A DNA stretch of 64,000 bases from an archaeon (GTDB taxonomy: Archaea > Nanobdellota > Nanobdellia > SCGC-AAA011-G17 > GW2011-AR20), in contig NZCT01000024.1 in NCBI GenBank assembly GCA_002688355.1, positions 111,762-175,761 of the forward strand. Reading direction: 5' to 3'. This document shows, piece by piece, positions 17,599-56,668 of this stretch (positions are counted from its first letter, which is position 1; the number at the start of each line of letters is the position of its first letter). The notes beneath the pieces are model-generated. The model was given only the letters and a program-made list of their open reading frames with translations. It made no database searches and was not told the origin of the DNA. The position numbers and the translations under genes are program-made.

Positions 17599-17599
17599 A

Positions 17600-19577: not shown

Positions 19578-19628
19578 AAGATAATCACAATAGTGAAATT
19601 TATAACCTTTTCTAAGTAAATTTTAAAA

Positions 19629-20654: not shown

Positions 20655-20655
20655 A

Positions 20656-31979: not shown

Positions 31980-31993
31980 TTTATTCCTCCTTG

Positions 31994-34128: not shown

Positions 34129-34171
34129 TCAAAAACAAAAATAAGCAAAATTTATAAGTCTGACTAAAGAA

Positions 34172-37149: not shown

Positions 37150-37658
37150 AAACCTTAGATTTAGGTTGTGGACATCATAAAGTAAAAGGAGCATTTGGTG
37201 TAGATTTTATTAAATTACCAGGAGTTGATTTTGTCTGGGATTTGAACAAAACATTACCAAAAGAATTTCATAATGAATACGATGTAGTTTACTCAAATGG
37301 TGTAATTGATCATCTTGGAAATCCTCTAAATTTTTTAGAAGGATGTAAAAAATACCTAAAGAAAGATGGGAAACTAATAACTATTGTCGATAACGGAGAT
37401 TATTGGAGATATCACTTACATCTAGGAAATTATCACGCGGACTTGTGGGAAAAAGATTTTCCAGATCATCCTGAAACACATCATAAAATGTTATTTCAAA
37501 TGAAACACATAGAAAAAATATTAAAATTATTAGATTTTAAAGTAACAAATAAAAAATACATAAGACTAACAGGAACTTGGAAAGATTATCATATAGATTA
37601 TTTATTGCCAAAATTTATTGGCTGTAATTTCATGAAAATAGAAGCTATAAAAAATTAA
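37146..37658 (+). CDS. Putative SAM-dependent methyltransferase
   Basis: MKTLDLGCGHHKVKGAFGVD (motif I, LDLGCG). Confidence 0.45.
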   Translation: MKTLDLGCGHHKVKGAFGVDFIKLPGVDFVWDLNKTLPKEFHNEYDVVYSNGVIDHLGNPLNFLEGCKKYLKKDGKLITIVDNGDYWRYHLHLGNYHADLWEKDFPDHPETHHKMLFQMKHIEKILKLLDFKVTNKKYIRLTGTWKDYHIDYLLPKFIGCNFMKIEAIKN

Positions 37659-38655: not shown

Positions 38656-40218
38656 ATGGTAAAAATAGGGTTAATAAAGAACGAATATGGATGGAAAAGA
38701 ATATTAGAACAGGAAAAAACACCTTGGGAAATCGCTAATTTAGCTAAAATTAATGAATACCCATTCTTAATATTAAATTCCACAAAAACATCAAATACAG
38801 AAAAAAAACAAATTAAAAACTATATAAAAGATGGAGGAATTATTTTAACAGATTTATCCTCTTTAAATACAATATACAAAAGTAAAAAAATATCAAAAGT
38901 TTACATAAAATCAATTAAAGAAAACAATAATTTATTTAAGAATATTCAAAAAATAAACATAGAAAATTATGGCTATAAATTAAAGAATAAAGAAGTAAAA
39001 ATACATAAATTCAAAATTGGCAAAGGGTTAATCATAGCTCTTCCATTCAATTTAAATTCCTTAATGAAAGATAGTAGATCAAAAAGACAATATCTTCCAT
39101 CTCCACATTCTGCATTAAAAGAAAACATTTCAATAGTTTCAAAAGGAGATTTAAGAAGATTAATCATAAATTGTTTCCACTACATATATTCAATTAAAAA
39201 AACTCCATATGTTCATTTATGGTATTATCCAAATAATTATAATTCAGTATTTACGTACAGAATAGATTTAGATATATTTAACAAAAATGAAATTAATAAT
39301 ATAATAAATGTAATAAAAAACAACAATAAAATAAAGTTAAATTGGTTTATTTCTGTTATAAATTCTAAAAATCATGAAAAAGGAATATTAAAACTACATA
39401 ATTTAAATCAAGATATACAATCTCATTCTTATAAACATTTAGTCTTTAATTCTCTAAAAGAAAATTACAAAAATATCCTAGAATCAAACAGATTCATTTC
39501 AAAATTTAAAGAAAAACCAATTGGATTTGCAGCACCCTTTGGACATTGGAATGAACCTCTAAATGAAGCATTAAAAAAATTAAATTACAAATATAGTTCA
39601 GAATTTTCTTTAAGTTATGATGACTTACCTTTTTATCCCTCTTCAAAAAATAACAAATCAAAAATATTACAACTCCCAATATATCCAACTTGCGTTGGTT
39701 TACTAGAAATGCAACTATACACAAAAAATAAGATGAAATCCTATTTTGATTATTTAATAGATATGCAGTATAGAAAACAAATGCCTTTATTTTTATATGA
39801 TCATCCAAACAATGGAATAGGTAAACATCCTAAAATTTTAGAACATATCTTAAAAAAAATAAAATCTTTAAATAACGTATTAATTACTGATTATCTCCAA
39901 TTTTACAATTGGTGGGAAAAAAGAGAAAAGATAAAGTATAGCATTTCATTATCAAAAAACAATTTAAAAATAATTACGAATAATAAAGATAAAGATATTT
40001 ACATAAGAATAATTCTCCCTAATAACAAAGAAGCTAGAATAATTCTAGAAAATAAAACTATAAAACTAAAAGAAATTAAAATAAAAGAAATTCCAATATT
40101 CAAAGATAATAAAATAACGAATATTAATATTCTAAAATCAAAATTATTATTTTCAGTCTATTACTTAAAAATACTAATAAAAGCACTAAAGAGAAAATTT
40201 TTATCTAAAATTTTATAA
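38656..40218 (+). CDS. Hypothetical lysine-rich protein, possible polysaccharide-deacetylase-like (CE4) domain
   Basis: Weak NodB-like features (TYRIDLD..., SHSYKHL HSxxH-like motif, FAAPFGHWN). Assignment is uncertain. Confidence 0.25.
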   Translation: MVKIGLIKNEYGWKRILEQEKTPWEIANLAKINEYPFLILNSTKTSNTEKKQIKNYIKDGGIILTDLSSLNTIYKSKKISKVYIKSIKENNNLFKNIQKINIENYGYKLKNKEVKIHKFKIGKGLIIALPFNLNSLMKDSRSKRQYLPSPHSALKENISIVSKGDLRRLIINCFHYIYSIKKTPYVHLWYYPNNYNSVFTYRIDLDIFNKNEINNIINVIKNNNKIKLNWFISVINSKNHEKGILKLHNLNQDIQSHSYKHLVFNSLKENYKNILESNRFISKFKEKPIGFAAPFGHWNEPLNEALKKLNYKYSSEFSLSYDDLPFYPSSKNNKSKILQLPIYPTCVGLLEMQLYTKNKMKSYFDYLIDMQYRKQMPLFLYDHPNNGIGKHPKILEHILKKIKSLNNVLITDYLQFYNWWEKREKIKYSISLSKNNLKIITNNKDKDIYIRIILPNNKEARIILENKTIKLKEIKIKEIPIFKDNKITNINILKSKLLFSVYYLKILIKALKRKFLSKIL

Positions 40219-40240
40219 ACCCTTCCAATTTGTAAATCAT

Positions 40241-41254
40241 ATGATCCTAGAGCAAAATTTTAAAGATTTTTACAAAGGTAAAGATGTAATAGTAACAGGT
40301 GGTTGTGGTTCAATAGGTAGAGAACTAGTAAAGCATCTTCTTAAATGTGACATTAAAAAAGTAAGAATTTTTGATCAAAACGAATTTAGCATACACAAAC
40401 TAAAAACTGAACTAGGGGAAAGCGAAAAAATAGATTATATAATAGGCAATATCAGAGATTATGACAGTATAAGATCATCTATGAAAGGTGCAAATATAGC
40501 ATTTCACACAGCAGCATTAAAACATGTTCCATTTTGTGAAACAGACCCTATAGAAGCTGTGAAAACAAACATAATTGGAACACATAATTTGATTGAAGTT
40601 GCAAAAGAAGAAAATCTAGAAAAAGTAATATTCATAAGTACAGACAAAACAGTATACCCCATCTCAGTAATGCCTGCAACTAAACTTTTATGTGAAAAAT
40701 TAGTGTTAAACACAAGAACATTTGATCTACCAACAAAATTTACTTGCGTCAGATTTGGGAATGTCCTAAAATCAGATGGTTCTGTTATTCCTTTATTTGT
40801 TGATCAAATAAAAAAAGGTTATATAAATATAACAGATGATAGGATGAGTAGATTTTTTATGTCATTAGATGATTCTGCAGATCTTGTTTTAAAATCAGCT
40901 GTAGAAGCACAAGGTGGAGAAATATTTGTATTAAAAATGAAATCACTAATGATAAAAGATTTAGCAGAATCACTAATAGAAGAATTTACACCCAAAATAA
41001 ATAAAAGTCCTGAAGATATAAAAATAAATTATATTGGTGCTCGATCTTCTGAAAAATTATATGAACAACTTATGAGCGATGAGGAAGTTCCTTATGCTGA
41101 AGATTTAGGAGATAGATTTGTAATTAGGAAAAATGGCCAATATAATAAAGATAGTAAAATAGACAAAAGTCTTTTCATATCTGAATATAGTGAAAAACTT
41201 TCTAAAGATGAAATAAAAAAGATGTTTTCAGAAATTAATTTATTAGAAAATTAA
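40241..41254 (+). CDS. Polysaccharide biosynthesis CapD/PglF/PseB-like UDP-sugar 4,6-dehydratase (Polysacc_synt_2)
   Basis: KDVIVTGGCGSIGRELVKHLL and MPATKLLCEKL. The Met-for-Tyr replacement in the SDR YxxxK position matches what is described for PglF-type dehydratases. Confidence 0.6.
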   Translation: MILEQNFKDFYKGKDVIVTGGCGSIGRELVKHLLKCDIKKVRIFDQNEFSIHKLKTELGESEKIDYIIGNIRDYDSIRSSMKGANIAFHTAALKHVPFCETDPIEAVKTNIIGTHNLIEVAKEENLEKVIFISTDKTVYPISVMPATKLLCEKLVLNTRTFDLPTKFTCVRFGNVLKSDGSVIPLFVDQIKKGYINITDDRMSRFFMSLDDSADLVLKSAVEAQGGEIFVLKMKSLMIKDLAESLIEEFTPKINKSPEDIKINYIGARSSEKLYEQLMSDEEVPYAEDLGDRFVIRKNGQYNKDSKIDKSLFISEYSEKLSKDEIKKMFSEINLLEN

Positions 41255-42303
41255 TTTAAAAGATCTTTATAACATTTAATCATTCTATCTGTAGCAACTT
41301 CCCATGTAAAATTATTCAAGATGTGTTCTCTCAATTTATTATCTTTATCTTTCTCATATGCTAGTACAAGTTTCTTTTCAATATCTTTATCATCAAAAGG
41401 ATCAACATAATGAGCATAATTTTCAAAGTATTCTTTTGGGCTACCTCTTGAAGTAATTAATATATTAGCTCCAGCCAAACCACCTTCTAAAACAGATAAT
41501 CCTGGATTCTCTAACCAAGAAGGTAAAGCAACCATTTTAGCTGCCGCGTACGCAGAACCAAGCATAGTGCTATCATGATCAAACCTATCCAAGAAAATTA
41601 TATCTTTATTATCTCCTGCTTCTTTAACACATAATTTATAATATTCATCTCCCTCTTGATAATTTTTACCTCCAACAATAACTAATGGGTACTTTAACTT
41701 ATTAACAATTTTAATTAATTTATGAACATTTTTTCTTGGTTCTATCCTTCCAGTATACAAAATAAAATCTTTTAATCCATATTTCTCTACAAATTCTTTT
41801 GAATCAGAATCATAAAATCTTCTATCTATAGCATAAGGAATTACCCTATATTTATCTTTATTTAATTTATAAGAATTATCTATAACATCTCTTTCAGCCT
41901 TTGAATCTGTAATTATTCTATCAGCCATATTTAACATTTTAGAAGCATATGTAAATCTATTAAAAAAAGGAGTATTATGCGTTAAAGCGTAACCACCCAA
42001 TTTTACTTTGTCTTTAAAGTTAGTTCCACTCTTAAAAGCAAATTTCAAAGATGGCCAAGAATATATTGGTGTAATTGCTATAGGAACTTTTTTATTATGT
42101 GCAACATTTATCACATCATAACAATTATTTGATAATCCAAAATTATGTAATATATCAAAATCTTCTAATTTATCATTCCACTGATCAAATAATTTTACAT
42201 CAATTCCTTTCTTTAACAAAAATTCCTTAGTTTTACTTAACAAAATCTCCCCCCCACCAGGAGCTTGAAATCCACTATTATTAGAATTAAGTAAAATTTT
42301 CAT
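41251..42303 (-). CDS. Glycosyltransferase family 4
   Basis: C-terminal GT-B motifs TGRIEPRKNVHKLIKIVNKL and ALPSWLENPGLSVLEG. Confidence 0.65.
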   Translation of the reverse strand: MKILLNSNNSGFQAPGGGEILLSKTKEFLLKKGIDVKLFDQWNDKLEDFDILHNFGLSNNCYDVINVAHNKKVPIAITPIYSWPSLKFAFKSGTNFKDKVKLGGYALTHNTPFFNRFTYASKMLNMADRIITDSKAERDVIDNSYKLNKDKYRVIPYAIDRRFYDSDSKEFVEKYGLKDFILYTGRIEPRKNVHKLIKIVNKLKYPLVIVGGKNYQEGDEYYKLCVKEAGDNKDIIFLDRFDHDSTMLGSAYAAAKMVALPSWLENPGLSVLEGGLAGANILITSRGSPKEYFENYAHYVDPFDDKDIEKKLVLAYEKDKDNKLREHILNNFTWEVATDRMIKCYKDLLN

Positions 42304-42304
42304 C

Positions 42305-43384
42305 TTAATATATATTTTTCAATGTGTCTAAAATCTTTACAGCCGATTTACCATCTCCAAAAGGATTTTCCCAATTAGTATCTCTACCCATCATAGTTTC
42401 AACAGATTCTAAAATTTTATCAGGATTTAAACCAGCTACAATATTGCTTCCCACATTTACTGTTTCAGGTCTTTCAGTAGTTAATCTCATAGTAACACAA
42501 GGAATTTTTAATATACAAGCCTCTTCTTGTATTCCACCAGAATCTGTAATCATAAGTCTAGCATTAGTTTCTAATTGTAAGAATTCTAAAAATCCGACAG
42601 GCTCTATAATTTTAATACATTCAGGGATTTTCAAATTAAAAGTATTAATCATTTTCTTAGTTCTAGGATGTAACGGCCATACAATCGGAAGCTTATATTT
42701 TTGATAAACCATATCCATTGCTTTCAAAATATTACTTAAAGTTTCTTTATCATCTACATTTTCTCCCCTATGTGCTGTTACTAAAAAATATTTTTTCGCT
42801 TCTAAATTTAATTTTTCTAAAAGACTTTTATCTTTATTAGCAATTTCCATGTTTTGATAAACAGAATCAACAATTGTATTTCCAACAACATGAATTCTTT
42901 CTTCATTAGTTCCTTCATCAAGTAAGTTTTGCTTAGCCCCCACAGTAGGAGCAAAATGATAATCGGCTAGCTGTCCTATCGCAATTCTATTTGTTTCTTC
43001 TAACATTCTTAAATCATCACTTCTTAAACCTGCTTCAATATGACTTATATCTATACTAGCTTTTGCAGCAGCCAATGCACCAGCAAATGCACTAGTTGGG
43101 TCTGCAAAAACTATCATGTTATCTGGTTTTTCTTTTTGTAAAACATCAAAAGCTCTTTTACTCATAAAACTAATCTGTTTCTTAAAAGAATCATACCCAC
43201 ATTCAAGATTATACTTAGGAGGATTCAAATTTAGCTCCTCAAAAAACAATTTATCCATATCATATGAATAATGCTGATTAGTATGTATAACAAAATGATC
43301 AATATTTCTATTTACCAACTCTCTAAATACAGGCGCAAGCTTAATAATTTCAGGCCTTACTCCAAGAATGACACCAATCTTCAT
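42305..43384 (-). CDS. wecB: UDP-N-acetylglucosamine 2-epimerase (non-hydrolysing, WecB/WbpI-like)
   Basis: MKIGVILGVRPEIIKLAPVFREL, HIEAGLRS, HVVGNTIVDSV and ITDSGGIQEEA are classic WecB-family motifs. Confidence 0.8.
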   Translation of the reverse strand: MKIGVILGVRPEIIKLAPVFRELVNRNIDHFVIHTNQHYSYDMDKLFFEELNLNPPKYNLECGYDSFKKQISFMSKRAFDVLQKEKPDNMIVFADPTSAFAGALAAAKASIDISHIEAGLRSDDLRMLEETNRIAIGQLADYHFAPTVGAKQNLLDEGTNEERIHVVGNTIVDSVYQNMEIANKDKSLLEKLNLEAKKYFLVTAHRGENVDDKETLSNILKAMDMVYQKYKLPIVWPLHPRTKKMINTFNLKIPECIKIIEPVGFLEFLQLETNARLMITDSGGIQEEACILKIPCVTMRLTTERPETVNVGSNIVAGLNPDKILESVETMMGRDTNWENPFGDGKSAVKILDTLKNIY

Positions 43385-43414
43385 AAGATTTAGGTTTCAA
43401 AAAATTATATAAAT

Positions 43415-44389
43415 CTATTGCTGGCTTTTATAGTATTCAACAGTTCTTCTTAACCCTTCTTCTAAAGAAATTTTTGGTTCCCATCCTAACAAATTTTTAG
43501 ATTTAGAAATATCTAATCTTTGTTTAACAATACTATCTCCTGGCCTTAATTCTGAAAAAATCAAATTAGATTGACTATTTGTAAGATTTTTAATAGTCTC
43601 CGCTAATTCCTTGATACTTGAGCTAGTACCGGAACCAAAATTAAAGCTTTCTCCAAAAACATTTTCAGATTTACCAAGTGCCAACAATCCTCCAATAATA
43701 TCATCAATATAAATAAAATCTTTCCCTTGTAATCCTCCACCATCTAATTTTAAATCTTCATTTTTTAAAGCACGTTCAGTAAAAATATGAACAACATTGT
43801 TCCCTTGTCTTGGCCCATATACATTAAAGAGTCTAACTACCACCACAGGTACTTCATAATTAAGAGAATATGATCTACAAAAGATTTCAGAGGATACTTT
43901 ACTATCAGCGTAAGGATTTCTTGGGTCAGGAAAGTCACTTTCTTTCGCTACTTCTTTTTTACCATAAACTTCCGAGGTAGAAGGAAATACTAATATCTCA
44001 AAATCAGAGTCTTCCTTATCTTTAATCAGTCTAATAGACTCTAAAACATTGATAGTTCCCATAAAATTAATATTAAGAACTTCTAAAGGGTTTTTAATAG
44101 AATATCCAACATTATTATTAGCAGCTAAATGATATATTATTTGGGGTTTATTTTTAACAATCAAATCTATTGTCTCTTTATCAGAAACATCACCAACAAT
44201 AACTTCTTTTAATTTATTTTCAATATGGCCAATATTTTCTAATTTTTCTTTATGAACATAAACAGAAACAGAAGCCCCTAAATCTACTAATTTTTCAGTT
44301 AGATGACTTCCTATAAAACCGTCTGCCCCAGTTATTAATACTCTCTTTCCGCTGTAAAATCCATCATCCATATATGCATAGTAAATCAA
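43415..44389 (-). CDS. NAD-dependent sugar epimerase/dehydratase (extended SDR)
   Basis: KRVLITGADGFIGSHLTEKL and YADSK. Confidence 0.75.
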   Translation of the reverse strand: MIYYAYMDDGFYSGKRVLITGADGFIGSHLTEKLVDLGASVSVYVHKEKLENIGHIENKLKEVIVGDVSDKETIDLIVKNKPQIIYHLAANNNVGYSIKNPLEVLNINFMGTINVLESIRLIKDKEDSDFEILVFPSTSEVYGKKEVAKESDFPDPRNPYADSKVSSEIFCRSYSLNYEVPVVVVRLFNVYGPRQGNNVVHIFTERALKNEDLKLDGGGLQGKDFIYIDDIIGGLLALGKSENVFGESFNFGSGTSSSIKELAETIKNLTNSQSNLIFSELRPGDSIVKQRLDISKSKNLLGWEPKISLEEGLRRTVEYYKSQQ

Positions 44390-44422: not shown

Positions 44423-45295
44423 ATGAACTTTGCCTATTCCATCTTAAAAATACCTTACCAAGGTTTTAAGAGGATTTACAGAAAATTAAGACTACTAAAG
44501 AATAAAAATTTGTCCAAAGTAAATAAAAATCTTTTAGTAAAAAAATTTAAAGAAATAGGTTTAAAATCAAATATGAATTTATATGTTCATTCTTCATTAA
44601 GTTCTTTTGGTTATATAGAAAATGGTCCAAATACAGTTATTGAAGCTTTAAAAGAAGTTGTAAATAATGGAACAATCATGATGCCAACATTTACACATCC
44701 AAAAGAAATCTTTACGTTAGCTGATTTTTGTTGGACTGGATCCATACCAGAAACATTTAGAAAACAAGAAAATACATCAAGAAGTATTCATCCATTACAT
44801 TCAATTTCCGTACAAGGAAATAATACAAAGTATTTAACGAAAGATCATGAGAACAGCAAAGCATCTTTCGATGAAAATTCTCCTTTCAAAAAATTCATAG
44901 AGTTAGAAAATTCATATATTCTAATGTTGGGAACAGAAAATAATAGCATGATCCATTATATTCAAAATAAGCTCAATTTTCCAAATTTATTCTTATCAGA
45001 AACAAAAAAAACTAATTTTAATAATAGAACAATAGAATCAAAACAACATCATCCAGAATTATCTATAACATACATTTACAAAAACAAAAAATGTTCTGAT
45101 GTAGATTTTCTAGTTAATATGTACAGAGATTTAAAATTTGAAGAAAGAGAAATAATGAAAACAGTAAAAATAGGGAATGCTACTTGTCGTTTAATTGACA
45201 CAAAAGATTTTATAAAATTTGGTACACCCTATTTAGAAAAAAATATGGAAGAATACAAACAAAAATATTCAGAATTAAAAAATGGAACCAACTAA
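44423..45295 (+). CDS. AAC(3)-family (Antibiotic_NAT fold) N-acetyltransferase-like protein
   Basis: LYVHSSLSSFGYIENGPNTVIEALKEVVNNGTIMMPTF resembles the N-terminal signature of aminoglycoside 3-N-acetyltransferase-fold enzymes. In this context it is probably an amino-sugar N-acyltransferase. Confidence 0.45.
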   Translation: MNFAYSILKIPYQGFKRIYRKLRLLKNKNLSKVNKNLLVKKFKEIGLKSNMNLYVHSSLSSFGYIENGPNTVIEALKEVVNNGTIMMPTFTHPKEIFTLADFCWTGSIPETFRKQENTSRSIHPLHSISVQGNNTKYLTKDHENSKASFDENSPFKKFIELENSYILMLGTENNSMIHYIQNKLNFPNLFLSETKKTNFNNRTIESKQHHPELSITYIYKNKKCSDVDFLVNMYRDLKFEEREIMKTVKIGNATCRLIDTKDFIKFGTPYLEKNMEEYKQKYSELKNGTN

Positions 45296-46172
45296 ATCCT
45301 ACCACATTATAGCAGATGGTTACAAAACAATAAGAATTAAATCTTATAATCCAAATACACCGAAGATTTCATCTACAGAAAAAGAATTTCTAAAAAAATT
45401 TATCAAAGAGCAAAGTGAAAAATCAAAGTCTGTAGGAGGTTCTTTCTATGATGGTTCTTTGGTAGGTGCTCTAATTGATTCAATTAAATTGAAGGATAAA
45501 GAAATTAGTTTTGATACACAACAAATAAAATACTCTCAGCATACAGGGTTATACAGAAATTCTCATAGCTCAAAAATTCAAGCAGTATATGTAAACAGTC
45601 TAGTTATAACAGATGATAATATGCTTGTTTTTGGTAAAACTCAAGCTACAGAACATGATTGGATGAATCGTTTAGGAATTCCTGCTGGAGGATTACAAGA
45701 AAGCCCAGATGGTTCACCATCCTTAGGCTCAACAATATACGCAGAACTAGCTGAAGAAATAGGGATTGCACCAGAGCATCACATAAAAAAAGGAGGAATC
45801 ATTCCAGGGTGGATCAGTGGAGCAAGTAAAAGAGAAAAAAATTATCATTTAACAGTATCCTTTATAACATCTTTAAAATTAAGCCAAAAAGAGATGACAT
45901 CTTGGTTTAAACAATGGAAAAACTCAGTAGAAAATAACATAAAATCAATTAAGGTAGAATTTAAAGATTTGGAGTTTATCCCTAATGATTATAATCATTT
46001 AAAAAAATTTATTGTTGAACAAAATAAAATGGGAAACAAATCAGTTATACTCCCAAAAACTTTAGATGTTTTAGAAGAATGGGTAACAACATATAAATGT
46101 GATATAAAAAATTTAGGGAAAAATAAGGGATTATATTTACCACAACCAAAGTTAAAAAATGGAACCAGTTAA
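45282..46172 (+). CDS. Hypothetical protein with Nudix-like box
   Basis: GGLQESPDGSPSLGSTIYAELAEEIGI approximates the Nudix box Gx5Ex7REUxEExGU. Assignment is weak. Confidence 0.3.
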   Translation: MEPTKSYHIIADGYKTIRIKSYNPNTPKISSTEKEFLKKFIKEQSEKSKSVGGSFYDGSLVGALIDSIKLKDKEISFDTQQIKYSQHTGLYRNSHSSKIQAVYVNSLVITDDNMLVFGKTQATEHDWMNRLGIPAGGLQESPDGSPSLGSTIYAELAEEIGIAPEHHIKKGGIIPGWISGASKREKNYHLTVSFITSLKLSQKEMTSWFKQWKNSVENNIKSIKVEFKDLEFIPNDYNHLKKFIVEQNKMGNKSVILPKTLDVLEEWVTTYKCDIKNLGKNKGLYLPQPKLKNGTS

Positions 46173-46575
46173 ATTCTCAGAATTAAAAGAAGGAATGAAA
46201 GGAACTTATTCTAAAAAAATAACTCAAGAAGATGTAGACGCTTTCATAAAAATATGTGATGATGTAAATCCAATACACGTAAGTGAAGAATTCGCAGCTA
46301 AAACACCATTAAAAACAAAAATAGTTCATGGTATTCTAACTTCAAGTTTAATATCAAATGTTGTAGGAACAAAAATTCCAGGCCCGGGTTCAATATGGTT
46401 AGATCAAAATTTAAAATTCTTAAAACCAGTATACATTAACGACGAGATAACAGCAACATCAGAAATACTAGCAAAACTAGATAGACAACAAGTCATGGTA
46501 AGAACAACATGTACAAATCAAGATGGAGAAATAGTCATAGAAGGAACTGGTTTACATAAAATGTTAAATCCTTAA
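46159..46575 (+). CDS. MaoC-like hot-dog fold dehydratase
   Basis: DDVNPIHVSEEFAAKTPLKTKIVHGILTSSLISNVVGTKIPGPGSIWLDQNLKFLKPV shows the MaoC/(R)-hydratase signature. Confidence 0.65.
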   Translation: MEPVKFSELKEGMKGTYSKKITQEDVDAFIKICDDVNPIHVSEEFAAKTPLKTKIVHGILTSSLISNVVGTKIPGPGSIWLDQNLKFLKPVYINDEITATSEILAKLDRQQVMVRTTCTNQDGEIVIEGTGLHKMLNP

Positions 46576-47294
46576 ATAGACAATCCACCATTAACATTTA
46601 TTACTTGTCCTGTAACATAATCATTTGTCAATAAAAATATTACAGAATGTGCAATTTCTTCAGCTTTTCCCACTCTCTTCAAAGGTATATTCTCTAAAAA
46701 TTTACTTAAAACATCTTCAGGAATAGCACTTCCTAATCCTGTATCTATAACACCAGGAGCTACCGCATTAACAGTAATTCCTTTACCAGAAACTTCTCTA
46801 GCTAATGCCTTCGTAAAGCCAATAACACCTGCTTTAGCTGCAGAATAATTTGTTTGTCCAAAGAAACCTATTTGTCCAGAAACACTCGATATATTAATAA
46901 TTTTACCATAATTATTCTTAAGCATTTCCTCTACAACAGGTTTAGTAACATTAAACATACTATTCAAATTAGTATCAATAACTTTATCCCATTCTTCCTT
47001 TCCCATGTTCTTAAAAGTCTTATCTTGTGAAATTCCAGCATTATTAATTAAAAAATCAATTTTCCCATATTTAGAAATTATACTACCAATCATTTCTTTA
47101 CATTCTTCAACATTACAAACATCTGCCTTAAAAGTCATTCCATTAGTTAATTTAGAAACTTCTTCTGCATTGTCCTTATCCTTAGAATAATTTACTATAA
47201 CTTTACAACCTTTTTTAGCTAATTCCATAGCTATTACTTTTCCAATACCTCTAGAAGATCCTGTTATTAATGCAATTTTATCTTTTAATTTCAT
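46572..47294 (-). CDS. Short-chain dehydrogenase/reductase (FabG-like 3-oxoacyl reductase)
   Basis: KIALITGSSRGIGKVIAMELAKKG, NNAG, and S...YSAAK catalytic triad region. Confidence 0.75.
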   Translation of the reverse strand: MKLKDKIALITGSSRGIGKVIAMELAKKGCKVIVNYSKDKDNAEEVSKLTNGMTFKADVCNVEECKEMIGSIISKYGKIDFLINNAGISQDKTFKNMGKEEWDKVIDTNLNSMFNVTKPVVEEMLKNNYGKIINISSVSGQIGFFGQTNYSAAKAGVIGFTKALAREVSGKGITVNAVAPGVIDTGLGSAIPEDVLSKFLENIPLKRVGKAEEIAHSVIFLLTNDYVTGQVINVNGGLSI

Positions 47295-47307
47295 TTTATT
47301 TCCATTG

Positions 47308-47565
47308 TTAGTCAGATCTACAACTTAATTTTCTTAAAGATTCTATTGATGGTTTAGTTTCACAACTAAGTTTATTTATAGAATCAATTAATAGATTAAG
47401 CTGATCATTTAAAATTTCATACATTACATCTTGTTTAGATTCTGGTAGTAAAGAAATTTCATCCATAGGCAATAATAACAAGTCATGTATTTCGCATATT
47501 TCTCTTTCATTATACTTTCCATCATATTTATTTGTTAAATAAGATAATATATTTTGATCTGCCAT
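47308..47565 (-). CDS. Small acidic hypothetical protein, possible acyl-carrier-protein-like
   Basis: 85 aa; LLPMDEISLLPESKQDVMYEILNDQ loosely resembles the ACP DSL...VELVM region. It lies between the FabG-like and FkbH-like genes. Very tentative. Confidence 0.25.
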   Translation of the reverse strand: MADQNILSYLTNKYDGKYNEREICEIHDLLLLPMDEISLLPESKQDVMYEILNDQLNLLIDSINKLSCETKPSIESLRKLSCRSD

Positions 47566-47603
47566 AACTATAATTTATATGAGAAATATTTATAAGTTTA
47601 TTC

Positions 47604-48638
47604 TTATTTTCTTTCAATATCCAACCAATTATGATATTCAGGTAATTCATCTTGAAGTGAATAACCATAAGTTATCTCATTTTCCTTCTTATTAATAACT
47701 TTAAATCCTCTTTTTAAATACAAAGGTTTCATCCTCCAATTACTCTCAATCTCTTTTAAGATACCTTTAATATTTTTAGCACCTTTTTCTTTAGCATAAT
47801 TCATTATAGCAATTAGCAAAGCACTTCCAATACCTCTTCCCATTGTTCTGCATGAAACAGTTAAATCTTTTATCTCCCATTCACTTGTTCTCGTATCAAC
47901 CATAACTTCAGCAATCAAACCATAATCGCCAAATTTATCATTTAATTCAGCAACGAAAATTTCTATTTCTTTATCATCATAAGATTTCTTCAATTTATCA
48001 AATTCATATCTATTTCCCGTAACGTTTAATTCATTAGTTCTATTAAATAATTGAACAACTCTTTCCCAATCTTTCTCCTCAACAGTTCTTATAGTCATTT
48101 TTATTCCACAATTCTTCAAAAAATCCTTATAATTACCATCTCTATTCTCTTCAGCTTGCTCTCTATCTCTCTGTTCTTTCAATAAACTAACTCTATTCTT
48201 GTCAGCATCAGTCTCACTATCCAATTTCATAAAATCTAAATCTAAGATATCTAAAGGATCTTTTACTTCAATAATATTTAACCCAGGAATTTGAGATGAA
48301 ACTTCAGCTCTTTGAAATGCATCATCATCCACAAAACAAATCTCCTTAGCGGTTAAATTATATTTCTGCATTAATTTTTTAATATTATCAGATTTCAATC
48401 CCCAATTTATTTCAGCACTATCAAAATATTTCTTAATTCCAAATCTCTCAAGCATCTTATCAGCATCTTCATAATAGTTCTTACTACAAATACTATTTTT
48501 TATATCTCTTTTAGTAATTTCTTTTAAAGTTGCCTCAGTCCCAGGTTTTAATTTAACATTATCTCTATCTTTATAGAAAACAGTTCCATCCCATAATGTA
48601 TTGTCCAAATCCCATACAACTAGTTTTACTTTTAACAT
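47604..48638 (-). CDS. FkbH-like HAD-IIIC phosphatase domain fused to GNAT-like domain
   Basis: MLKVKLVVWDLDNTLWDG (HAD motif I, typical of FkbH/IIIC). The C-terminal GNAT-like segment reads TMGRGIGSALLIAIMNYAKEKGAKNIKG. Confidence 0.55.
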   Translation of the reverse strand: MLKVKLVVWDLDNTLWDGTVFYKDRDNVKLKPGTEATLKEITKRDIKNSICSKNYYEDADKMLERFGIKKYFDSAEINWGLKSDNIKKLMQKYNLTAKEICFVDDDAFQRAEVSSQIPGLNIIEVKDPLDILDLDFMKLDSETDADKNRVSLLKEQRDREQAEENRDGNYKDFLKNCGIKMTIRTVEEKDWERVVQLFNRTNELNVTGNRYEFDKLKKSYDDKEIEIFVAELNDKFGDYGLIAEVMVDTRTSEWEIKDLTVSCRTMGRGIGSALLIAIMNYAKEKGAKNIKGILKEIESNWRMKPLYLKRGFKVINKKENEITYGYSLQDELPEYHNWLDIERK

Positions 48639-49756
48639 TTTAATGCTTCTATTGGTGCTAATTTATTACCAGATAAAAATTCAATAGCTGCTCCACCTCC
48701 TGTGGATACATAAGTAAATTTACTCTTCAATTTATTTAAAACTGTTTCGGTGTCTCCTCCACAGATTATTATAGTCTTATCACTATTAGCTAAATATTTT
48801 CCTAACTCTAAAGTTCCTTTAGCAAATTCCTCTTCTTGATAATAACCTAAAGGACCACTAAAAATAACTGTATTTGCCTTATCTAAATATTCCTTAAACA
48901 ATTCAATACTTTTAACTCCAAGGTCCAAACCTTCACAATTAATATCAATATTCTCAATATCTAAATTAATATTTTTATCTTCATTCTTACAATTAATATC
49001 AATTGGTAATATTATTTTCTTACTTTTCATTAACTCTCTTGCATCATCTAAGAAATTATCATCACTAAAACTTTTCCCAATTTCATATCCTTTTGCTTTC
49101 AAAAAAACATAAGCTAACGCACCACCAACCAATAAATAATCAACTTTCCTTAACAACTTAAAAATTAAAGGAAATTTGGTTGATATTTTAGATCCTCCAA
49201 TAATTCCTACAATAGGTTTCTCCTTATTTTCTAAAGATAAATTAGAAATTTCTTTTTCAACTAACAATCCCATACAGTTAGGAATATATTTTTGTACAGA
49301 AACAGTTGAAGCATGTTCCCTATAACTACCAAATGCATCATAAACATAAATCTCTCCATGTCTTGAAAGTTTCTTAGCAAATTCTTGATCATTCAATTCT
49401 TCCTCTTTATGAAATCTTAAATTTTCAAGTAAAACAATTTTCTTATCACTAGGAATCTCAATATCAATACAATCATCCATTTTTACAAGATCTATTTCAA
49501 GAATCTCTTTTAGTCTTTCAGAAATCTTATTCATTTTCAATTTCTCATCAAAACCATTAGGTCTTCCCAAATGACTCATTAAAACAATTTGTTTACAATT
49601 ATTATCAAGAATATATTTGATTGTAGAGATAGATTCTCTAATCTTATTATCAGAAATTATTTCTGCTCCTTCATCTAATGGAACATTAAAATCAACTCTA
49701 ATCAAAACTCTTTTTCCTTCAAAATTAAAATCTTTAACAGTCTTTATATCATTCAT
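48632..49756 (-). CDS. pgk: Phosphoglycerate kinase
   Basis: KRVLIRVDFNVPLDEGAEIISDNKIRESISTIKYILDNNCKQIVLMSHLGRP matches the PGK N-terminal signature. C-terminal GGGAAIEFL matches the PGK GGGA motif. Its stop overlaps the FkbH-like start by 7 bp. Confidence 0.75.
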   Translation of the reverse strand: MNDIKTVKDFNFEGKRVLIRVDFNVPLDEGAEIISDNKIRESISTIKYILDNNCKQIVLMSHLGRPNGFDEKLKMNKISERLKEILEIDLVKMDDCIDIEIPSDKKIVLLENLRFHKEEELNDQEFAKKLSRHGEIYVYDAFGSYREHASTVSVQKYIPNCMGLLVEKEISNLSLENKEKPIVGIIGGSKISTKFPLIFKLLRKVDYLLVGGALAYVFLKAKGYEIGKSFSDDNFLDDARELMKSKKIILPIDINCKNEDKNINLDIENIDINCEGLDLGVKSIELFKEYLDKANTVIFSGPLGYYQEEEFAKGTLELGKYLANSDKTIIICGGDTETVLNKLKSKFTYVSTGGGAAIEFLSGNKLAPIEALKC

Positions 49757-49807: not shown

Positions 49808-50935
49808 ATGAAAATAGGTTTTTTAATAGAAAATTTCTACCCAACAACAGGTGGAGCTGAAAATAATTGTTTTTACTTAGCTAAAGAACTGTCAAAAAAT
49901 CATGAAATTCATATTTATACATCTAAACCAGAAAACACAAAAAGTTACGAAATTATTAACAATCTACATATTCACAGATATAAAACATTATTCAAATACA
50001 AATATTATCTAAGCTTTACACCAGGATTAATAAAAGTAATAAATACTGATTTAGATATACTACACATCCATAGTCTAGGTTTTCCTTATCATGATTTAAT
50101 AATTCTACTACTTAAATTATTCAATAAAAATGTGAAATTAGTAAACACACCACATGGCCCGTTCATGGCTCTTACCATTTATCCTTTACATTTAAAATTA
50201 ATAAAAAATATAACAGAACGCCTAGAAAAACCAATAAATAATCTTTACGATAAAGTAATTCAAGTTAATCCTTACCAATATCAATGGATGACAACTCTCG
50301 GAATTAAAAAAAATAAAATAGAATTTATTCCAAATGGCATTGAAGAAGATTCCTTTAATAAAATAAATGAAAAATTAGATTTAGAAAAACAATTAAAAAA
50401 TAAAACTGTAATATCTTACATAGGCAGAATTGACAAATACAAAGGCTTAGATCAAATAATAAAACTACTACCAAAATTTAAAGATTTAATATTTATTGCA
50501 ATAGGCCAAGACGTTGGAGATAAAAAAAGACTAGAAAATCTATCAACAAATCTAAAAGTCCAAAACCAAATTATCTTTACAGGAAAAGTTTCAGAAGAGG
50601 AAAAACTAAGAATACTACAAATATCAAATTTATTTATCTTACCAAGTGATTGGGAAGCATTTGGAATTGTAATGTTAGAAGCAATGGCTCAAGAGAATAT
50701 AATAATCTCAACAACCACAGAAGGTGGAAAATTCTTAATAAAAGAAAATGAAAACGGTTTTTTATATGATTTTAACAATTTAACCCAATTAGAATCCATC
50801 TTAAACAAAATACTAAAAAACAAAAAACAACAAGAAATCATAATTAAAAACAATCTAAAAAAATCAAAAGAATTCTTATGGAAAAATATATCCAAAGATC
50901 TAGAAAAATTATATCAATCATTAGCCCATAAATAG
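49808..50935 (+). CDS. Glycosyltransferase family 4
   Basis: MKIGFLIENFYPTTGGAENNCFYLAKELSK, with C-terminal GT-B motifs (EAFGIVMLEAMA). Confidence 0.65.
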   Translation: MKIGFLIENFYPTTGGAENNCFYLAKELSKNHEIHIYTSKPENTKSYEIINNLHIHRYKTLFKYKYYLSFTPGLIKVINTDLDILHIHSLGFPYHDLIILLLKLFNKNVKLVNTPHGPFMALTIYPLHLKLIKNITERLEKPINNLYDKVIQVNPYQYQWMTTLGIKKNKIEFIPNGIEEDSFNKINEKLDLEKQLKNKTVISYIGRIDKYKGLDQIIKLLPKFKDLIFIAIGQDVGDKKRLENLSTNLKVQNQIIFTGKVSEEEKLRILQISNLFILPSDWEAFGIVMLEAMAQENIIISTTTEGGKFLIKENENGFLYDFNNLTQLESILNKILKNKKQQEIIIKNNLKKSKEFLWKNISKDLEKLYQSLAHK

Positions 50936-50965
50936 CTATATAAAATTATTTCTTGACCAAATACT

Positions 50966-52093
50966 ATGAAAATTGCCCATATATGTCCATTCTACAAACC
51001 ATCTATAGGTGGAGTAGAACAAGTTGTAGAAGAATTAGGTAAAAGACAAATCTCAAAAGGAAACGAAGTTCATGTCTTTACTTCAGATTGGGATAAAAAC
51101 ACTAGGATTAAAAAAAAATACGAGCTTATAGATGGAATACACGTACATAGATCTTATCATTTTTTTAAAGTTGCTAATTTCGCAAGTTTTTGGCCATCTG
51201 TTTTTCTAAAACTATACAAACAAAAATTTGACATCATTCATACACATGTATTTGGTCATCTTCATGTTTTCCTTGCGTCGTTAGTTGGAAAATTAACAAA
51301 TACAAAATTAGTACACACAACACATTGTCCATGGACTAATATAAATAGATCTTTCTTAGGAGAATTATTAATTAAATTAACATACAGCACTTTCAGTAGT
51401 TTAGCTTTAAACTGGAATAATAAAATTATAGCAATAACGCCTTGGGAATTAAAATTCATTAAAAAATATACTAAAACACCAATAGAAGTAATCCCAAATG
51501 GTGTGGATCAATTATTATACAAACAAATTAAAGATAATAATTTCAAAAAAGAACATAACGTAAAAGATAAACTAGTTTTATTCTTTGGAAGATTTAACAT
51601 TACAAAAGGTCCTGATAAACTAGTTATAGTAGCAAAAGAAATTCTAAAAGAAAGAAAAGATATTGATTTTATTTTTGTAGGTCCAGATGAAGGGATTAAA
51701 GATAAAGTTATCTCTCTAGCCAAAGGTGTAAAAAAAATACAAATCTTAGCTCCAATAAGAGATAGAAAAAAAGTAGCAGAAATGTATCAAGCAGCAGATG
51801 TTTTCGCTATGCCATCATTTAGAGAAGGTCTTCCACTAACTTTATTTGAAGCCATGGCATCTCAAGTACCAGTAATAGCTTCTCCAGTAAATGGAATACC
51901 TTATGAAATGAAAGATGATTACAATGGTTTCTTAGTAAAATATAATGATCTAAAAACTTTAAAAGAAAAAATCATAGCAGTTCTAGATAATAAAACTCTA
52001 TCAAATAAATTTAGAAAAAATAATAAAATCACAGCAGAAAAATATAATTGGGATATTATCGAGGATAAAACAAATAAAATTTATCAAAACTAA
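50966..52093 (+). CDS. Glycosyltransferase family 4
   Basis: MKIAHICPFYKPSIGGVEQVV... and C-terminal PSFREGLPLTLFEAMASQVPVIAS. Confidence 0.7.
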   Translation: MKIAHICPFYKPSIGGVEQVVEELGKRQISKGNEVHVFTSDWDKNTRIKKKYELIDGIHVHRSYHFFKVANFASFWPSVFLKLYKQKFDIIHTHVFGHLHVFLASLVGKLTNTKLVHTTHCPWTNINRSFLGELLIKLTYSTFSSLALNWNNKIIAITPWELKFIKKYTKTPIEVIPNGVDQLLYKQIKDNNFKKEHNVKDKLVLFFGRFNITKGPDKLVIVAKEILKERKDIDFIFVGPDEGIKDKVISLAKGVKKIQILAPIRDRKKVAEMYQAADVFAMPSFREGLPLTLFEAMASQVPVIASPVNGIPYEMKDDYNGFLVKYNDLKTLKEKIIAVLDNKTLSNKFRKNNKITAEKYNWDIIEDKTNKIYQN

Positions 52094-52815: not shown

Positions 52816-52857
52816 AAAATAAATTAAACAATAAAATTAATAAAACTTTATAATAAA

Positions 52858-52941
52858 CGCCGACGCTCGGATTTGAACCAAGATATCCTTTCGGAAACCA
52901 GCTCTCAAGGCTGGCGCAATACCGGATTATGCGACGTCGGC
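52858..52941 (-). tRNA. tRNA-Ser: tRNA-Ser (anticodon UGA) with long variable arm, no intron, CCA not encoded
   Basis: The reverse complement reads GCCGACG-UCGCAUAAUCCGGUAUUGCG-CCAGC-CUUGAGA-GCUGG-UUUCCGAAAGGAUAUC-UUGG-UUCAAAU-CCGAG-CGUCGGC-G. The 7-bp acceptor stem pairs, the anticodon loop has UGA centred, there is a 16-17 nt variable arm, and the T-loop is UUCAAAU. Confidence 0.8.
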
Positions 52942-52984
52942 ATAGTATAAAATAGAAAATAGAACCTTATAAATTTTTAGGTAA

Positions 52985-56521: not shown

Positions 56522-56668
56522 TGAACACACCTCCATGTGTTTTCCCACGTAGGGATTCGATTTTTATTATTTATTAACATTAGCCAGATAGTATTAACCT
56601 AACTCCTATGTTATCAAGTTAAAATAAAATCTGATTTATAAACATTTCTCTACTAAAACATATATGAA

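Follow-up and report, generated by a model that had tools for sequence, protein, structure and literature searches.

Why should a kinase of central glycolysis be encoded directly in front of an FkbH-like protein, amid genes for the decoration of a cell surface? The question is raised by a 64,000-nucleotide stretch of the archaeal contig NZCT01000024.1 ('the window', by which we mean that whole stretch), nearly all of which is a cell-surface glycan island; the source is a metagenome-assembled genome from the mesopelagic 0.1-0.22 µm fraction of Tara Oceans, with a window GC content of ~27% and best homologs of its genes in Woesearchaeota and Nanoarchaeota (DPANN archaea). To our knowledge, FkbH enzymes have been described solely in the biosynthesis of polyketides and non-ribosomal peptides, in which a carrier protein receives from them a glyceryl unit. 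On balance, we favour the reading that the phosphoglycerate kinase (PGK) and the FkbH-like protein of the window would together constitute a two-step, ATP-driven unit for the activation of glycerate, set within an acyl-tailoring module for a surface glycan. In support of it, we observe the identities of the genes, the conservation of catalytic residues, synteny with related islands and a recurrent, independent recruitment of PGK. The genes in question are as follows (aa, amino acids; ORF, open reading frame; CoA, coenzyme A):

48632..49756, minus strand: PGK, 374 aa (PF00162, E=5.7e-115, residues 7-363), heading the operon
48632..48638, minus strand: overlap of the PGK stop with the FkbH-like start, 7 bp, ATGTTAA, read directly
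47604..48638, minus strand: FkbH-domain protein, 344 aa (TIGR01686, TIGR01681), HAD-IIIC plus GNAT
47308..47565, minus strand: acidic ORFan, 85 aa, between the FkbH-like and SDR genes
46572..47294, minus strand: classical short-chain dehydrogenase/reductase (SDR) of the FabG/acetoacetyl-CoA-reductase type, 240 aa (adh_short_C2, E=1.4e-63)
46159..46575, plus strand: MaoC-type (R)-specific hydratase/dehydratase, 138 aa (PF01575, E=4.7e-20), convergent
45282..46172, plus strand: 296-aa ORF, function not assignable by family, between the AAC(3)-like and MaoC genes
44423..45295, plus strand: AAC(3)-fold N-acyltransferase (Antibiotic_NAT), 290 aa (PF02522, E=4.8e-40)
49808..52093, plus strand: two GT4 glycosyltransferases (Pfam), divergent from PGK, at the far edge of the PGK slot

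Matches to Pfam and NCBIfam bear out the genes named in the original prediction, which was made from the DNA letters: PGK, an FkbH-like HAD-IIIC/GNAT protein, and FabG-like and MaoC-like neighbours. The four minus-strand ORFs (PGK, FkbH-like, 85-aa ORF, SDR) run head to tail; the AAC(3)-like, 296-aa and MaoC ORFs, on the plus strand, converge on this PGK–FkbH operon with successive overlaps of 14 bp and are translationally coupled. The 7-bp overlap between the PGK stop and the FkbH-like start, also described in the prediction, is confirmed by the junction itself, with ...AAA TGT TAA closing the PGK gene and ATG TTA AAA opening that of FkbH; what does not hold is its use as a sign that the two are coupled, which we reject since overlaps occur in 15 of the window's 41 pairs of same-strand neighbours and ~94% of its DNA is coding. 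With overlaps so common, the case for a functional coupling must rest on other genomes.

Searching the window proteins against 70 loci (tblastn; loci carry L numbers), we see a block shared between DPANN islands in the order GT4-GT4-(slot)-FkbH-reductase-MaoC-AAC(3)-like-UDP-GlcNAc 2-epimerase-epimerase/dehydratase-GT4-Polysacc_synt_2-polysaccharide deacetylase, the proteins of these syntenic islands being 37-78% identical to those of the window, with fewer matches in L001 and L068. The outer border of the slot is marked by GT4 orthologs (57-63% identity), which adjoin FkbH itself in L029 and L031, a semiSWEET gene in L001 and PGK in L065. Between GT4 and FkbH there is nothing in L029 and in L031 (complete genome, archaeon GW2011_AR20), semiSWEET in L001, semiSWEET plus PGK in L030/L068—with, in L068, a UDP-GlcNAc 2-epimerase gene also inserted between GT4 and semiSWEET—and, in L065-L067 as in the window, just PGK. 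PGK is found directly upstream of FkbH, that is, in two further DPANN lineages (L065-L067; L030/L068). Glyceraldehyde-3-phosphate dehydrogenase (GAPDH), the other producer of 1,3-bisphosphoglycerate (1,3-BPG), is next to FkbH in none of the 70 loci, and we saw no other gene of central metabolism in the GT4–FkbH slot.

The window PGK matches PGKs in the PDB at E-values down to 7e-78, and its best non-self homolog (P0122) is 58% identical. R20, H62, R114, R146 and the catalytic lysines K190 and K194 occupy invariant columns of the PGK alignment and R65 is read in the HLGRP motif; R20, H62, R114 and R146 belong to what we take to be the basic patch that binds 3-phosphoglycerate (3-PG) or 1,3-BPG. 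At near-invariant positions it carries seven unique changes, the most among 36 PGKs: H145Y, W299F, N300S, E307Q, S357A, L358I and P367A. All but H145Y are located in the C-terminal nucleotide-binding domain, where W299F, N300S, E307Q and S357A, conservative changes, fall in the nucleotide-site motifs (WNGP...E, STGGGAS).

The PGKs of L030/L068 (L030 8927-9964) and L065-L067 (L065 8001-9053), together with P0243, are of a short form of 344-350 aa; in these three lineages they are 72-73% identical to each other and ~40% identical to the window PGK, the island proteins of L065-L067 and L030/L068 other than PGK being 45-78% identical to those of the window. Two deletions of ~23 aa in the nucleotide-binding domain account for the short form, and those residues of the 3-PG site that were checked are intact. 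The short PGK lies directly upstream of FkbH in both of the lineages with long enough contigs (that of P0243 is 1.3 kb). We rejected the possibility of a decaying pseudogene, the same length and 72-73% identity having been kept in three lineages.

Placing the 36 PGKs in a bootstrapped, distance-based (neighbour-joining) tree, we find the window PGK grouped in one clade with housekeeping DPANN PGKs of full length (188/200 bootstraps), on a branch ~40% longer than that of its sister; members of this clade adjoin adenylate kinase, RelA/SpoT and TruD. The short PGKs form a clade of their own (100/100), grouped with other full-length DPANN PGKs in 142/200; their closest full-length relative, P0245 (50% identity), encoded beside A-type ATPase and H+-pyrophosphatase, groups with them weakly (80/200). 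A single origin of the FkbH-linked PGKs is rejected, as a joint clade appears in 0/100 bootstraps and the window PGK sits in the other clade in 188/200. Because the window and short PGKs join different housekeeping clades and never each other, the tree indicates that PGK has been recruited to the FkbH slot at least twice; both recruited enzymes are, by alignment, unusually diverged in the nucleotide-binding domain. The original prediction had allowed that the gene might sit in a conserved gluconeogenic neighbourhood, and this is not so: its nearest relatives are in housekeeping contexts, the window PGK in a glycan island. Other genomes repeat the adjacency of PGK and FkbH with PGKs that arose separately, which places it above chance, and we consider it very unlikely that repeated insertion of PGK right upstream of FkbH would be accidental.

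Some further features of the slot and its surroundings can be recorded here. The semiSWEET genes (PQ-loop/MtN3, 89-92 aa) are directly upstream of FkbH (L001 7682-7951) or of PGK-FkbH (L030 8652-8930, where the gene overlaps the PGK start by 4 bp), and the transporter may import a precursor. Downstream of the PGK gene of P0122 comes (L069 2636-2725) the N-terminal part of a UDP-glucose/GDP-mannose dehydrogenase-like gene, so that this PGK too may belong to a glycan locus, though its contig is only 2.7 kb long. Toxin-antitoxin-type genes (AbiEii; PIN plus ribbon-helix-helix; PemK/MazE; HEPN/Polbeta) occur at differing points of the FkbH module in relatives, the island being a hotspot for small mobile insertions:

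L001 9621-10259 and 11153-11792; L068 13033-13610; L065 5112-6216: toxin-antitoxin-type insertions

Is the protein downstream of PGK really of the FkbH type? It scores 217.3 bits against the FkbH-domain model TIGR01686 (cutoff 146.65), covering model positions 3-320 of 323, and 51.9 bits against the HAD-IIIC model TIGR01681 (cutoff 35.75); residues 192-318 give a GNAT signal. There are more than 1,000 homologs; the closest, at 69-75% identity, are all of 344-345 aa, from DPANN archaea and a few Patescibacteria, and since these align over 100% of the window protein we take the annotated start to be correct. Identity to the FkbH proteins of polyketide synthase (PKS) and non-ribosomal peptide synthetase (NRPS) clusters (L027, L028) is 33-34%, aligned end to end. 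Of two reference proteins, one is the HAD-IIIC protein of the hybrid NRPS/PKS cluster of B. thuringiensis pBMB400, which, from the gene order, is presumably ZmaN of the zwittermicin cluster. The other is that of a Streptomyces plasmid cassette (3-hydroxyacyl-CoA dehydrogenase/phosphopantetheine-binding/acyl-CoA dehydrogenase/HAD-IIIC), an order that equals the classical methoxymalonyl-acyl carrier protein (ACP) genes of the ozm and fkb systems (PMC9057759).

In an alignment of 19 members of the family, drawn from Actinomycetota, Bacillota, bacteria of the candidate phyla radiation (CPR) and DPANN archaea, D10 and D12 of motif I, S52, K82, D104-D105, S262-C263-R264...R268 and N300 are invariant (19/19). 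Motif I of the window protein reads D10-L-D12-N-T14, with T14 conserved in a six-sequence alignment, and HAD motif IV reads D104-D105-D106; the same six sequences also agree at G269 and G271 of the RGxG loop, for which the 19-member set shows one exception and many exceptions, respectively. C263, of the 'SCR' motif, is the sole Cys invariant across the 19, the 'KC' Cys found just before motif I in PKS-type FkbH enzymes being a Leu in the archaeal clade. The AlphaFold2 (AF2) model (predicted local distance difference test score, pLDDT, 87.8) has a cap-less N-terminal HAD domain and a C-terminal GNAT fold, with HAD phosphatase domains (3slr from Bacteroides BF1531; MDP-1) and GNAT acetyltransferases as the best PDB matches, and it positions C263 at the end of GNAT strand beta4, beside the RGxG loop. 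In GNATs, this loop holds the pantetheine pyrophosphate. We infer that C263 is the Cys that would carry the (phospho)glyceryl thioester, and we regard the protein, on its sequence, as a genuine member of the FkbH family; the Asp/Cys arrangement expected of an FkbH HAD protein, on which the original prediction had made itself depend, appears to be kept (HAD motifs, SCR Cys, TIGR01686).

The published FkbH mechanism runs from 1,3-BPG to a phosphoglyceryl-S-enzyme and then to a glyceryl-S-enzyme (review PMC9057759; PMC7489565), the glyceryl group finally being handed to a pantetheine thiol (PMC9057759); the modelled position of Cys263 beside the RGxG loop, and the HAD/GNAT layout, fit this scheme. 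That glycan-island FkbH proteins use 1,3-BPG is indicated indirectly, by the repeated recruitment of PGK directly upstream of them.

A carrier protein is the next component to look for, and the 85-aa ORF behind FkbH had been proposed to be it. It has no Pfam or NCBIfam match even at E<=10; a PDB sequence search returns no carrier protein, BLASTP no similarity to E. coli AcpP, and phmmer, run exhaustively on 1.84 billion representative proteins, only the ORF itself; nor is it matched by an ACP profile made from the ACPs of bacterial FkbH loci (see below). Its AF2 single-sequence model is helical and moderately confident only (pLDDT 73), and Foldseek finds, with that model, a best PDB E-value of 3.9, none at E<=0.001 and no ACP among the matches. 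In place of the Ser in a DSL-like context that the original prediction had hoped for, there is no DS motif, the candidate serines lying in DEIS38 and ES43. No counterpart exists in the 70 loci (tblastn), syntenic islands included; in L009, the closest relative with the region intact (FkbH 73% identical), the FkbH–SDR gap is 65 bp. We consequently reject the ORF as an ACP, Pfam/NCBIfam, PDB, AcpP BLASTP, phmmer, the custom ACP hidden Markov model and AF2 plus Foldseek all being negative, and the earlier description of it as ACP-like gives way to that of an ORFan with neither the sequence nor the fold signal of an ACP, absent from relatives. Since the chance of an 85-codon open frame in DNA of ~28% GC is, by our own estimate, ~5e-4 per start, it is probably a real, lineage-specific small gene. 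Extending the screen with the ACP profile over all six-frame ORFs of at least 40 aa in the window, and with Pfam over all but one of its ORFs of at least 110 aa, we find no ACP and no phosphopantetheinyl transferase (PPTase) among the ORFs screened. The profile (hmmsearch --max, E<=10) returns nothing from the window or from any DPANN locus, and finds every bacterial partner ACP at E<=1e-16.

The enzymes that could act on a loaded acyl unit are, by comparison, widely shared. The SDR scores 285.9 bits against PRK12824 (cutoff 269) and 289.8 bits, below the cutoff of 302.1, against TIGR01829 (AcAcCoA_reduct), its top NCBIfam matches being acetoacetyl-CoA reductase and FabG, and it holds the TGxxxGIG, NNAG, S and YxxxK motifs. 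Orthologs at 52-79% identity adjoin FkbH in L001, L002, L009, L026, L041, L045, L047 and L048; L065 and L068 have a 287-aa extended-SDR gene at the same position, and L031 a gap of matching size. MaoC shows the hydratase-2 motif F-IK-I-C-D-D-V-N-P-I-H with its catalytic Asp and His, and has orthologs (56-77% identity) in every sufficiently long syntenic DPANN island; FkbH, MaoC and a classical or extended SDR are present as discrete genes in all such long islands. In DPANN archaea and in CPR/Bacillota bacteria alike, MaoC and a reductase occur with FkbH, so that they very probably act on the FkbH-loaded unit, and the earlier suggestion that FabG- and MaoC-type enzymes modify a tethered acyl group gains strength from this co-occurrence.

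The AAC(3)-like gene is the commonest neighbour of the window FkbH clade (>20 loci). Its PDB matches are aminoglycoside N3-acetyltransferases, YokD and FrbF, and the solved relatives are all, we presume, acetyl-CoA-dependent. The 296-aa ORF beside it reaches no family above threshold (NUDIX, E=0.06; weak MutT/nudix PDB matches, E 0.4-1), carries a sub-threshold Nudix-box-like stretch, GGLQESPDGSPSLGSTIYAELAEEIGI, and has no tblastn match in any related locus; like the 85-aa ORF, it appears specific to the window lineage.

Does this assembly correspond to any FkbH system already described? With the FkbH/OzmB/ZmaN-type enzymes of methoxymalonyl-ACP, hydroxymalonyl-ACP and tetronate formation, the window protein shares the TIGR01686 domain, length, HAD motifs, SCR Cys and the presumed substrate, 1,3-BPG (PMC9057759, PMC7489565). 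Unlike those systems, the window has no ACP, FkbI, FkbK or FkbG partner and no PKS/NRPS; its FkbH gene lies in an archaeal island for glycans, has MaoC, SDR and an AAC(3)-fold protein as partners and is immediately preceded by PGK. A methoxymalonyl-type oxidation route is rejected, neither the acyl-CoA dehydrogenase FkbI, the 3-hydroxyacyl-CoA dehydrogenase FkbK, the ACP FkbJ nor the O-methyltransferase FkbG being adjacent to the window FkbH; the cassette is intact in our Streptomyces control locus (L028). The loading modules of trans-acyltransferase PKSs come closer, in that FkbH, a dehydratase (DH) and a ketoreductase (KR) are likewise found together in the window; in bryostatin BryA, the order of the loading module is DH-KR-FkbH-ACP. 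FkbH-containing modules of this kind convert 1,3-BPG and ACP to D-lactate-ACP and two Pi (inorganic phosphate) (PMC7901079). The window differs in having discrete proteins, a MaoC-type dehydratase and no ACP, and whilst the PKS module feeds a ketosynthase, the window product would go to a sugar amine; no PKS domain is present in the window proteins scanned. Lacking an ACP and the remaining partner genes, the window FkbH belongs neither to a methoxymalonyl cassette or tetronate operon nor to a PKS loading module.

In Campylobacter, glyceroyl-type decorations of pseudaminic acid (Pse) occur, and the cj1302 locus has what we take to be ACPs (acpP paralogs) and a 3-ketoacyl-ACP synthase III (fabH paralogs). 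Here, too, an FkbH-domain gene lies within a glycan-modification locus: cj1302 belongs to the flagellar glycosylation locus of C. jejuni, and is without functional study (PMC7099621). No PGK, MaoC or AAC(3)-like partner is reported there, and we liken the two by description only.

A homologous counterpart is found in Saccharibacteria, other Patescibacteria and Bacillota, the hosts of the distant FkbH relatives. In twelve loci (L049-L058, L061, L064) a homologous FkbH of 24-30% identity lies in a glycan or teichoic-acid-like cluster, just as the archaeal islands are glycan islands; most of these bacterial proteins have an extra N-terminal domain (524-570 aa) and no PGK is present. Directly downstream of FkbH, all twelve carry an ORF of 74-93 aa with a WDSF or LDS motif; the one tested scores 21.0 bits against PF00550 (cutoff 20.8). 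MaoC follows the small ORF in 7/12 loci, and an SDR then follows in two of those seven. FkbH, MaoC and a reductase appear, from these comparisons, to be an old, conserved unit, of which the archaeal version has no detectable carrier protein and an AAC(3)-fold acyltransferase instead.

The fullest arrangement, in the Patescibacteria locus L049 (9042-14391), reads PPTase (ACPS)-FkbH (551 aa, FkbH_N)-ACP-MaoC-SDR-GNAT-like-methyltransferase-GT2, with Glyphos_transf also adjoining; this is the only bacterial locus for which neighbours were scanned, and hence our source for the PPTase and GNAT. As annotated, L049 gives the archaeal module a full bacterial equivalent that depends on a carrier, and in the literature searched we found no characterisation of an L049-type operon.

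An analogy, and only that, may also be drawn with Nod factors, where the NodB de-N-acetylase is paired with the NodA N-acyltransferase: the islands likewise combine a deacetylase with an N-acyltransferase served by a dedicated acyl-donor pathway. The acyltransferase families are unrelated, and the proposed donor is a three-carbon (C3) unit, not a fatty acyl-ACP.

Bringing these observations together, we can outline how the module would work; here the substrate (1,3-BPG), carrier (CoA), order of tailoring, product and acceptor are what we infer. PGK would run in the gluconeogenic direction, forming 1,3-BPG from 3-PG and ATP, pulled by its irreversible consumption by FkbH. Cys263, in the GNAT-fold domain of the FkbH-like protein, would then take the acyl phosphate as a thioester, the HAD domain (Asp10/Asp12) would remove the 3-phosphate, and the glyceryl group would pass to a pantetheine thiol, most likely that of free CoA. 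We suggest CoA because no ACP or PPTase is detectable; because the partner enzymes belong to families with acyl-CoA-using members, the AAC(3)-like relatives being acetyl-CoA-dependent and the SDR and MaoC resembling acyl-CoA enzymes; and because an ATP-citrate-lyase/CoA-ligase-like set elsewhere in the window shows CoA chemistry in use. MaoC and the SDR could tailor the glyceryl thioester by dehydration, to the enol of a pyruvoyl group, and reduction to lactoyl; by analogy, a lactoyl product is at least as likely as a glyceroyl one, since D-lactate-ACP is what forms in the one documented case where FkbH is combined with a dehydratase and a ketoreductase (PMC7901079). The AAC(3)-fold enzyme would place the resulting C3 hydroxyacyl unit, whether glyceroyl or lactoyl, on the amino group of a sugar of the hexosamine type, one that the conserved 520-aa polysaccharide deacetylase may have exposed; as the conserved block has a deacetylase and no aminotransferase, de-N-acetylation followed by re-acylation of a hexosamine is a reasonable guess. 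The whole scheme—ACP-independent acylation of DPANN surface sugars, in which a remodelled PGK, recruited and specialised at least twice, supplies 1,3-BPG, perhaps by channelling, for FkbH to form glyceryl-CoA, MaoC/SDR to form lactoyl-CoA and a hexosamine to be N-acylated—we put forward tentatively, as a possible route and not as the one we expect to see borne out in every part.

The plainest alternative has the PGK as a housekeeping enzyme of glycolysis or gluconeogenesis, set beside FkbH by rearrangement in a compact genome and without functional meaning. Its place in a housekeeping DPANN clade, the frequency of overlapping genes and the majority of related islands with no PGK would all be as expected; we nonetheless think it unlikely, given that PGK is upstream of FkbH in two further lineages and of different ancestry there, that its product is the exact metabolite consumed by characterised FkbH enzymes, that both island PGKs are atypically diverged, and that the slot holds no other gene of central metabolism, GAPDH never being found there. 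A different division of labour would assign SDR, MaoC and the AAC(3)-like protein to a PhaB/PhaJ-like route of their own, through (R)-3-hydroxybutanoyl-CoA to an N-3-hydroxybutanoyl sugar, whilst PGK and FkbH would independently form a substituent of glycerate or phosphoglycerate. Bacterial glycans commonly contain N-3-hydroxybutanoyl sugars, the SDR has acetoacetyl-CoA reductase and FabG as its top NCBIfam matches and the MaoC proteins are PhaJ-like. Against this, the island proteins scanned include no thiolase or other source of acetoacetyl-CoA; the association of FkbH with MaoC and a reductase is kept all the way from DPANN archaea to Saccharibacteria and Patescibacteria; the bacterial ACP sits between FkbH and MaoC in one operon; and some islands exchange the classical for an extended SDR whilst FkbH and MaoC stay. 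We regard a split of this kind as improbable.

Two further readings concern single proteins. The FkbH-like protein might be only a phosphatase or acyltransferase acting on a phosphoglycerate-containing sugar (compare the glycosyl-3-phosphoglycerate pathways), with PGK giving 3-PG and not 1,3-BPG; glycosylglycerate pathways do use 3-PG and a HAD phosphatase, and the HAD phosphatase motifs are intact here. We see little prospect of this, as a full FkbH domain with its invariant Cys and GNAT pantetheine loop would be needless in a simple phosphatase, no glycosyl-3-phosphoglycerate synthase family is found next to the FkbH-like gene, and MaoC, reductase and the AAC(3)-like enzyme imply thioester chemistry. 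Slimmer still is the chance that the acidic 85-aa protein is a novel carrier, diverged beyond recognition, that receives the glyceryl unit: it lies right after FkbH, the position of the ACP in bacterial relatives, is predicted to be helical, with a long helix whose N-terminal end holds Ser43, and is, by our calculation, too long to be a chance ORF in AT-rich DNA, yet it has no homolog, is absent from syntenic relatives that keep FkbH, MaoC, reductase and the AAC(3)-like gene, and shows no phosphopantetheine-binding signal and no ACP fold match, with no PPTase among the window ORFs screened.

Saying this, a number of points weigh against our preferred reading of PGK and FkbH as a glycerate-activating pair. 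The PGK–FkbH overlap is by itself uninformative, and most syntenic islands (L001, L029, L031/AR20, L009) are without a PGK beside FkbH, so that a dedicated PGK would be optional. The window PGK may be the sole PGK of its genome, serving central metabolism as well, and N300S and E307Q, at positions homologous to those that bind ATP, could alter or weaken its kinase activity. FabG-type SDRs normally act on 3-oxo/3-hydroxy groups, not on 2-oxo groups; the proposed CoA acceptor is argued from an absence of evidence for an ACP; and the function of every glycan-island FkbH is a prediction and not a biochemical result.

The glycan island itself contains glycosyltransferases, sugar epimerases/dehydratases, NeuB, a CMP-sugar cytidylyltransferase, DegT, phosphonate genes, B12-radical-SAM (S-adenosylmethionine) enzymes, methyltransferases and a surface-layer (S-layer) protein. 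Its features beyond the PGK–FkbH region, the first five forming the conserved syntenic block assigned by Pfam, are:

38656-40218, plus strand: polysaccharide deacetylase, 520 aa
40241-41254, plus strand: Polysacc_synt_2 dehydratase
41251-42303, minus strand: GT4
42305-43384, minus strand: UDP-GlcNAc 2-epimerase
43415-44389, minus strand: NAD epimerase/dehydratase
5515-6087, 6129-6818 and 37146-37658: three SAM methyltransferases
26359-27405: NeuB
54272-56548: S_layer_C protein, in the S-layer operon

L029, L031 and L065 hold the genes of the block 38656..44389 in unchanged order, with identities of 37-69% (no match to Polysacc_synt_2 being detected in L031 and L065), and the block is a likely source of the acceptor amino sugar. 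Its conserved genes, with their neighbour, are polysaccharide deacetylase, UDP-GlcNAc 2-epimerase and the AAC(3)-like N-acyltransferase, not Pse genes, and no aminotransferase is among them. The prediction had pointed to glyceroyl and di-O-methylglyceroyl groups on Pse; the set of FkbH, dehydratase and reductase agrees with a lactoyl product no less well. The several SAM methyltransferases that the prediction had placed in the island are present, as the three listed.

Further sets of genes point to other decorations. A trio resembling ATP-citrate lyase (15543-18331, plus strand, with 18309-21909) comprises ATP-grasp_2+Citrate_bind, CoA_binding+Ligase_CoA and a citrate-synthase C-terminal domain; with a CMP-sugar cytidylyltransferase, GNAT, GFO_IDH_MocA oxidoreductase and DegT next to it, the trio has the look of another dedicated source, here of acetyl-CoA, for sugar acylation in an archaeon of reduced metabolism. 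A phosphonate set (29404-36378, minus strand, plus 24211-26340 and 6853-8292) holds a cytidylyltransferase-phosphoenolpyruvate mutase fusion, a cupin, a nucleotidyltransferase, an Fe-alcohol dehydrogenase and a thiamine pyrophosphate decarboxylase-like protein, with three B12-binding radical-SAM enzymes alongside, and suggests a methylated phosphonate decoration of the glycan. An adenosine 5'-phosphosulfate (APS) kinase (13139-13663, plus strand) and two genes of the CDP-alcohol phosphatidyltransferase family (11461-12129 and 36391-37149, both plus strand) are also present, suggesting sulfation and transfer of phospho-alcohols onto the glycan or a lipid carrier. A tRNA-Ser (anticodon tga; 52857-52942, minus strand) divides the glycosyltransferase block from the S-layer operon, and in related Woesearchaeota inteins interrupt UDP-glucose dehydrogenase and the A-type ATPase catalytic subunit (L005 5018-7723; L070 300-3503).

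In the literature searched, we found no paper that joins FkbH with phosphoglycerate kinase, in line with the original statement that a dedicated supply of 1,3-BPG to FkbH was not known to have been described for archaeal glycan modification, and the papers there that name FkbH together with polysaccharide include no functional study. The chemistry of the enzyme is already known; what is new here is an FkbH protein in an archaeal glycan context without a carrier protein, and an adjacent PGK supply that has evolved twice. For Tannerella, the candidate gene for the N-glyceroyl group of its pseudaminic acid was said, as of 2018, to 'remain[s] elusive' (PMC6120980).

FkbH proteins, then, would not be confined to the pathways in which they were characterised, being encoded also in the glycan islands of archaea and candidate-phyla bacteria, with the archaeal ones apparently working without a carrier protein. 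The insertion of PGK in front of FkbH, on at least two occasions, provides independent, if indirect, genomic evidence that 1,3-BPG is the compound used, and it suggests that in organisms of minimal metabolism a central glycolytic enzyme has been co-opted and remodelled as the activating enzyme of a single pathway. The five-protein module is a candidate origin for C3 hydroxyacyl (glyceroyl/lactoyl) decorations of amino sugars. If the ACP-independent route is true, it would be the first genetically defined pathway to N-glyceroyl or N-lactoyl sugars, and a candidate answer for glyceroyl decorations whose genes have been elusive, such as that of Tannerella (PMC6120980).

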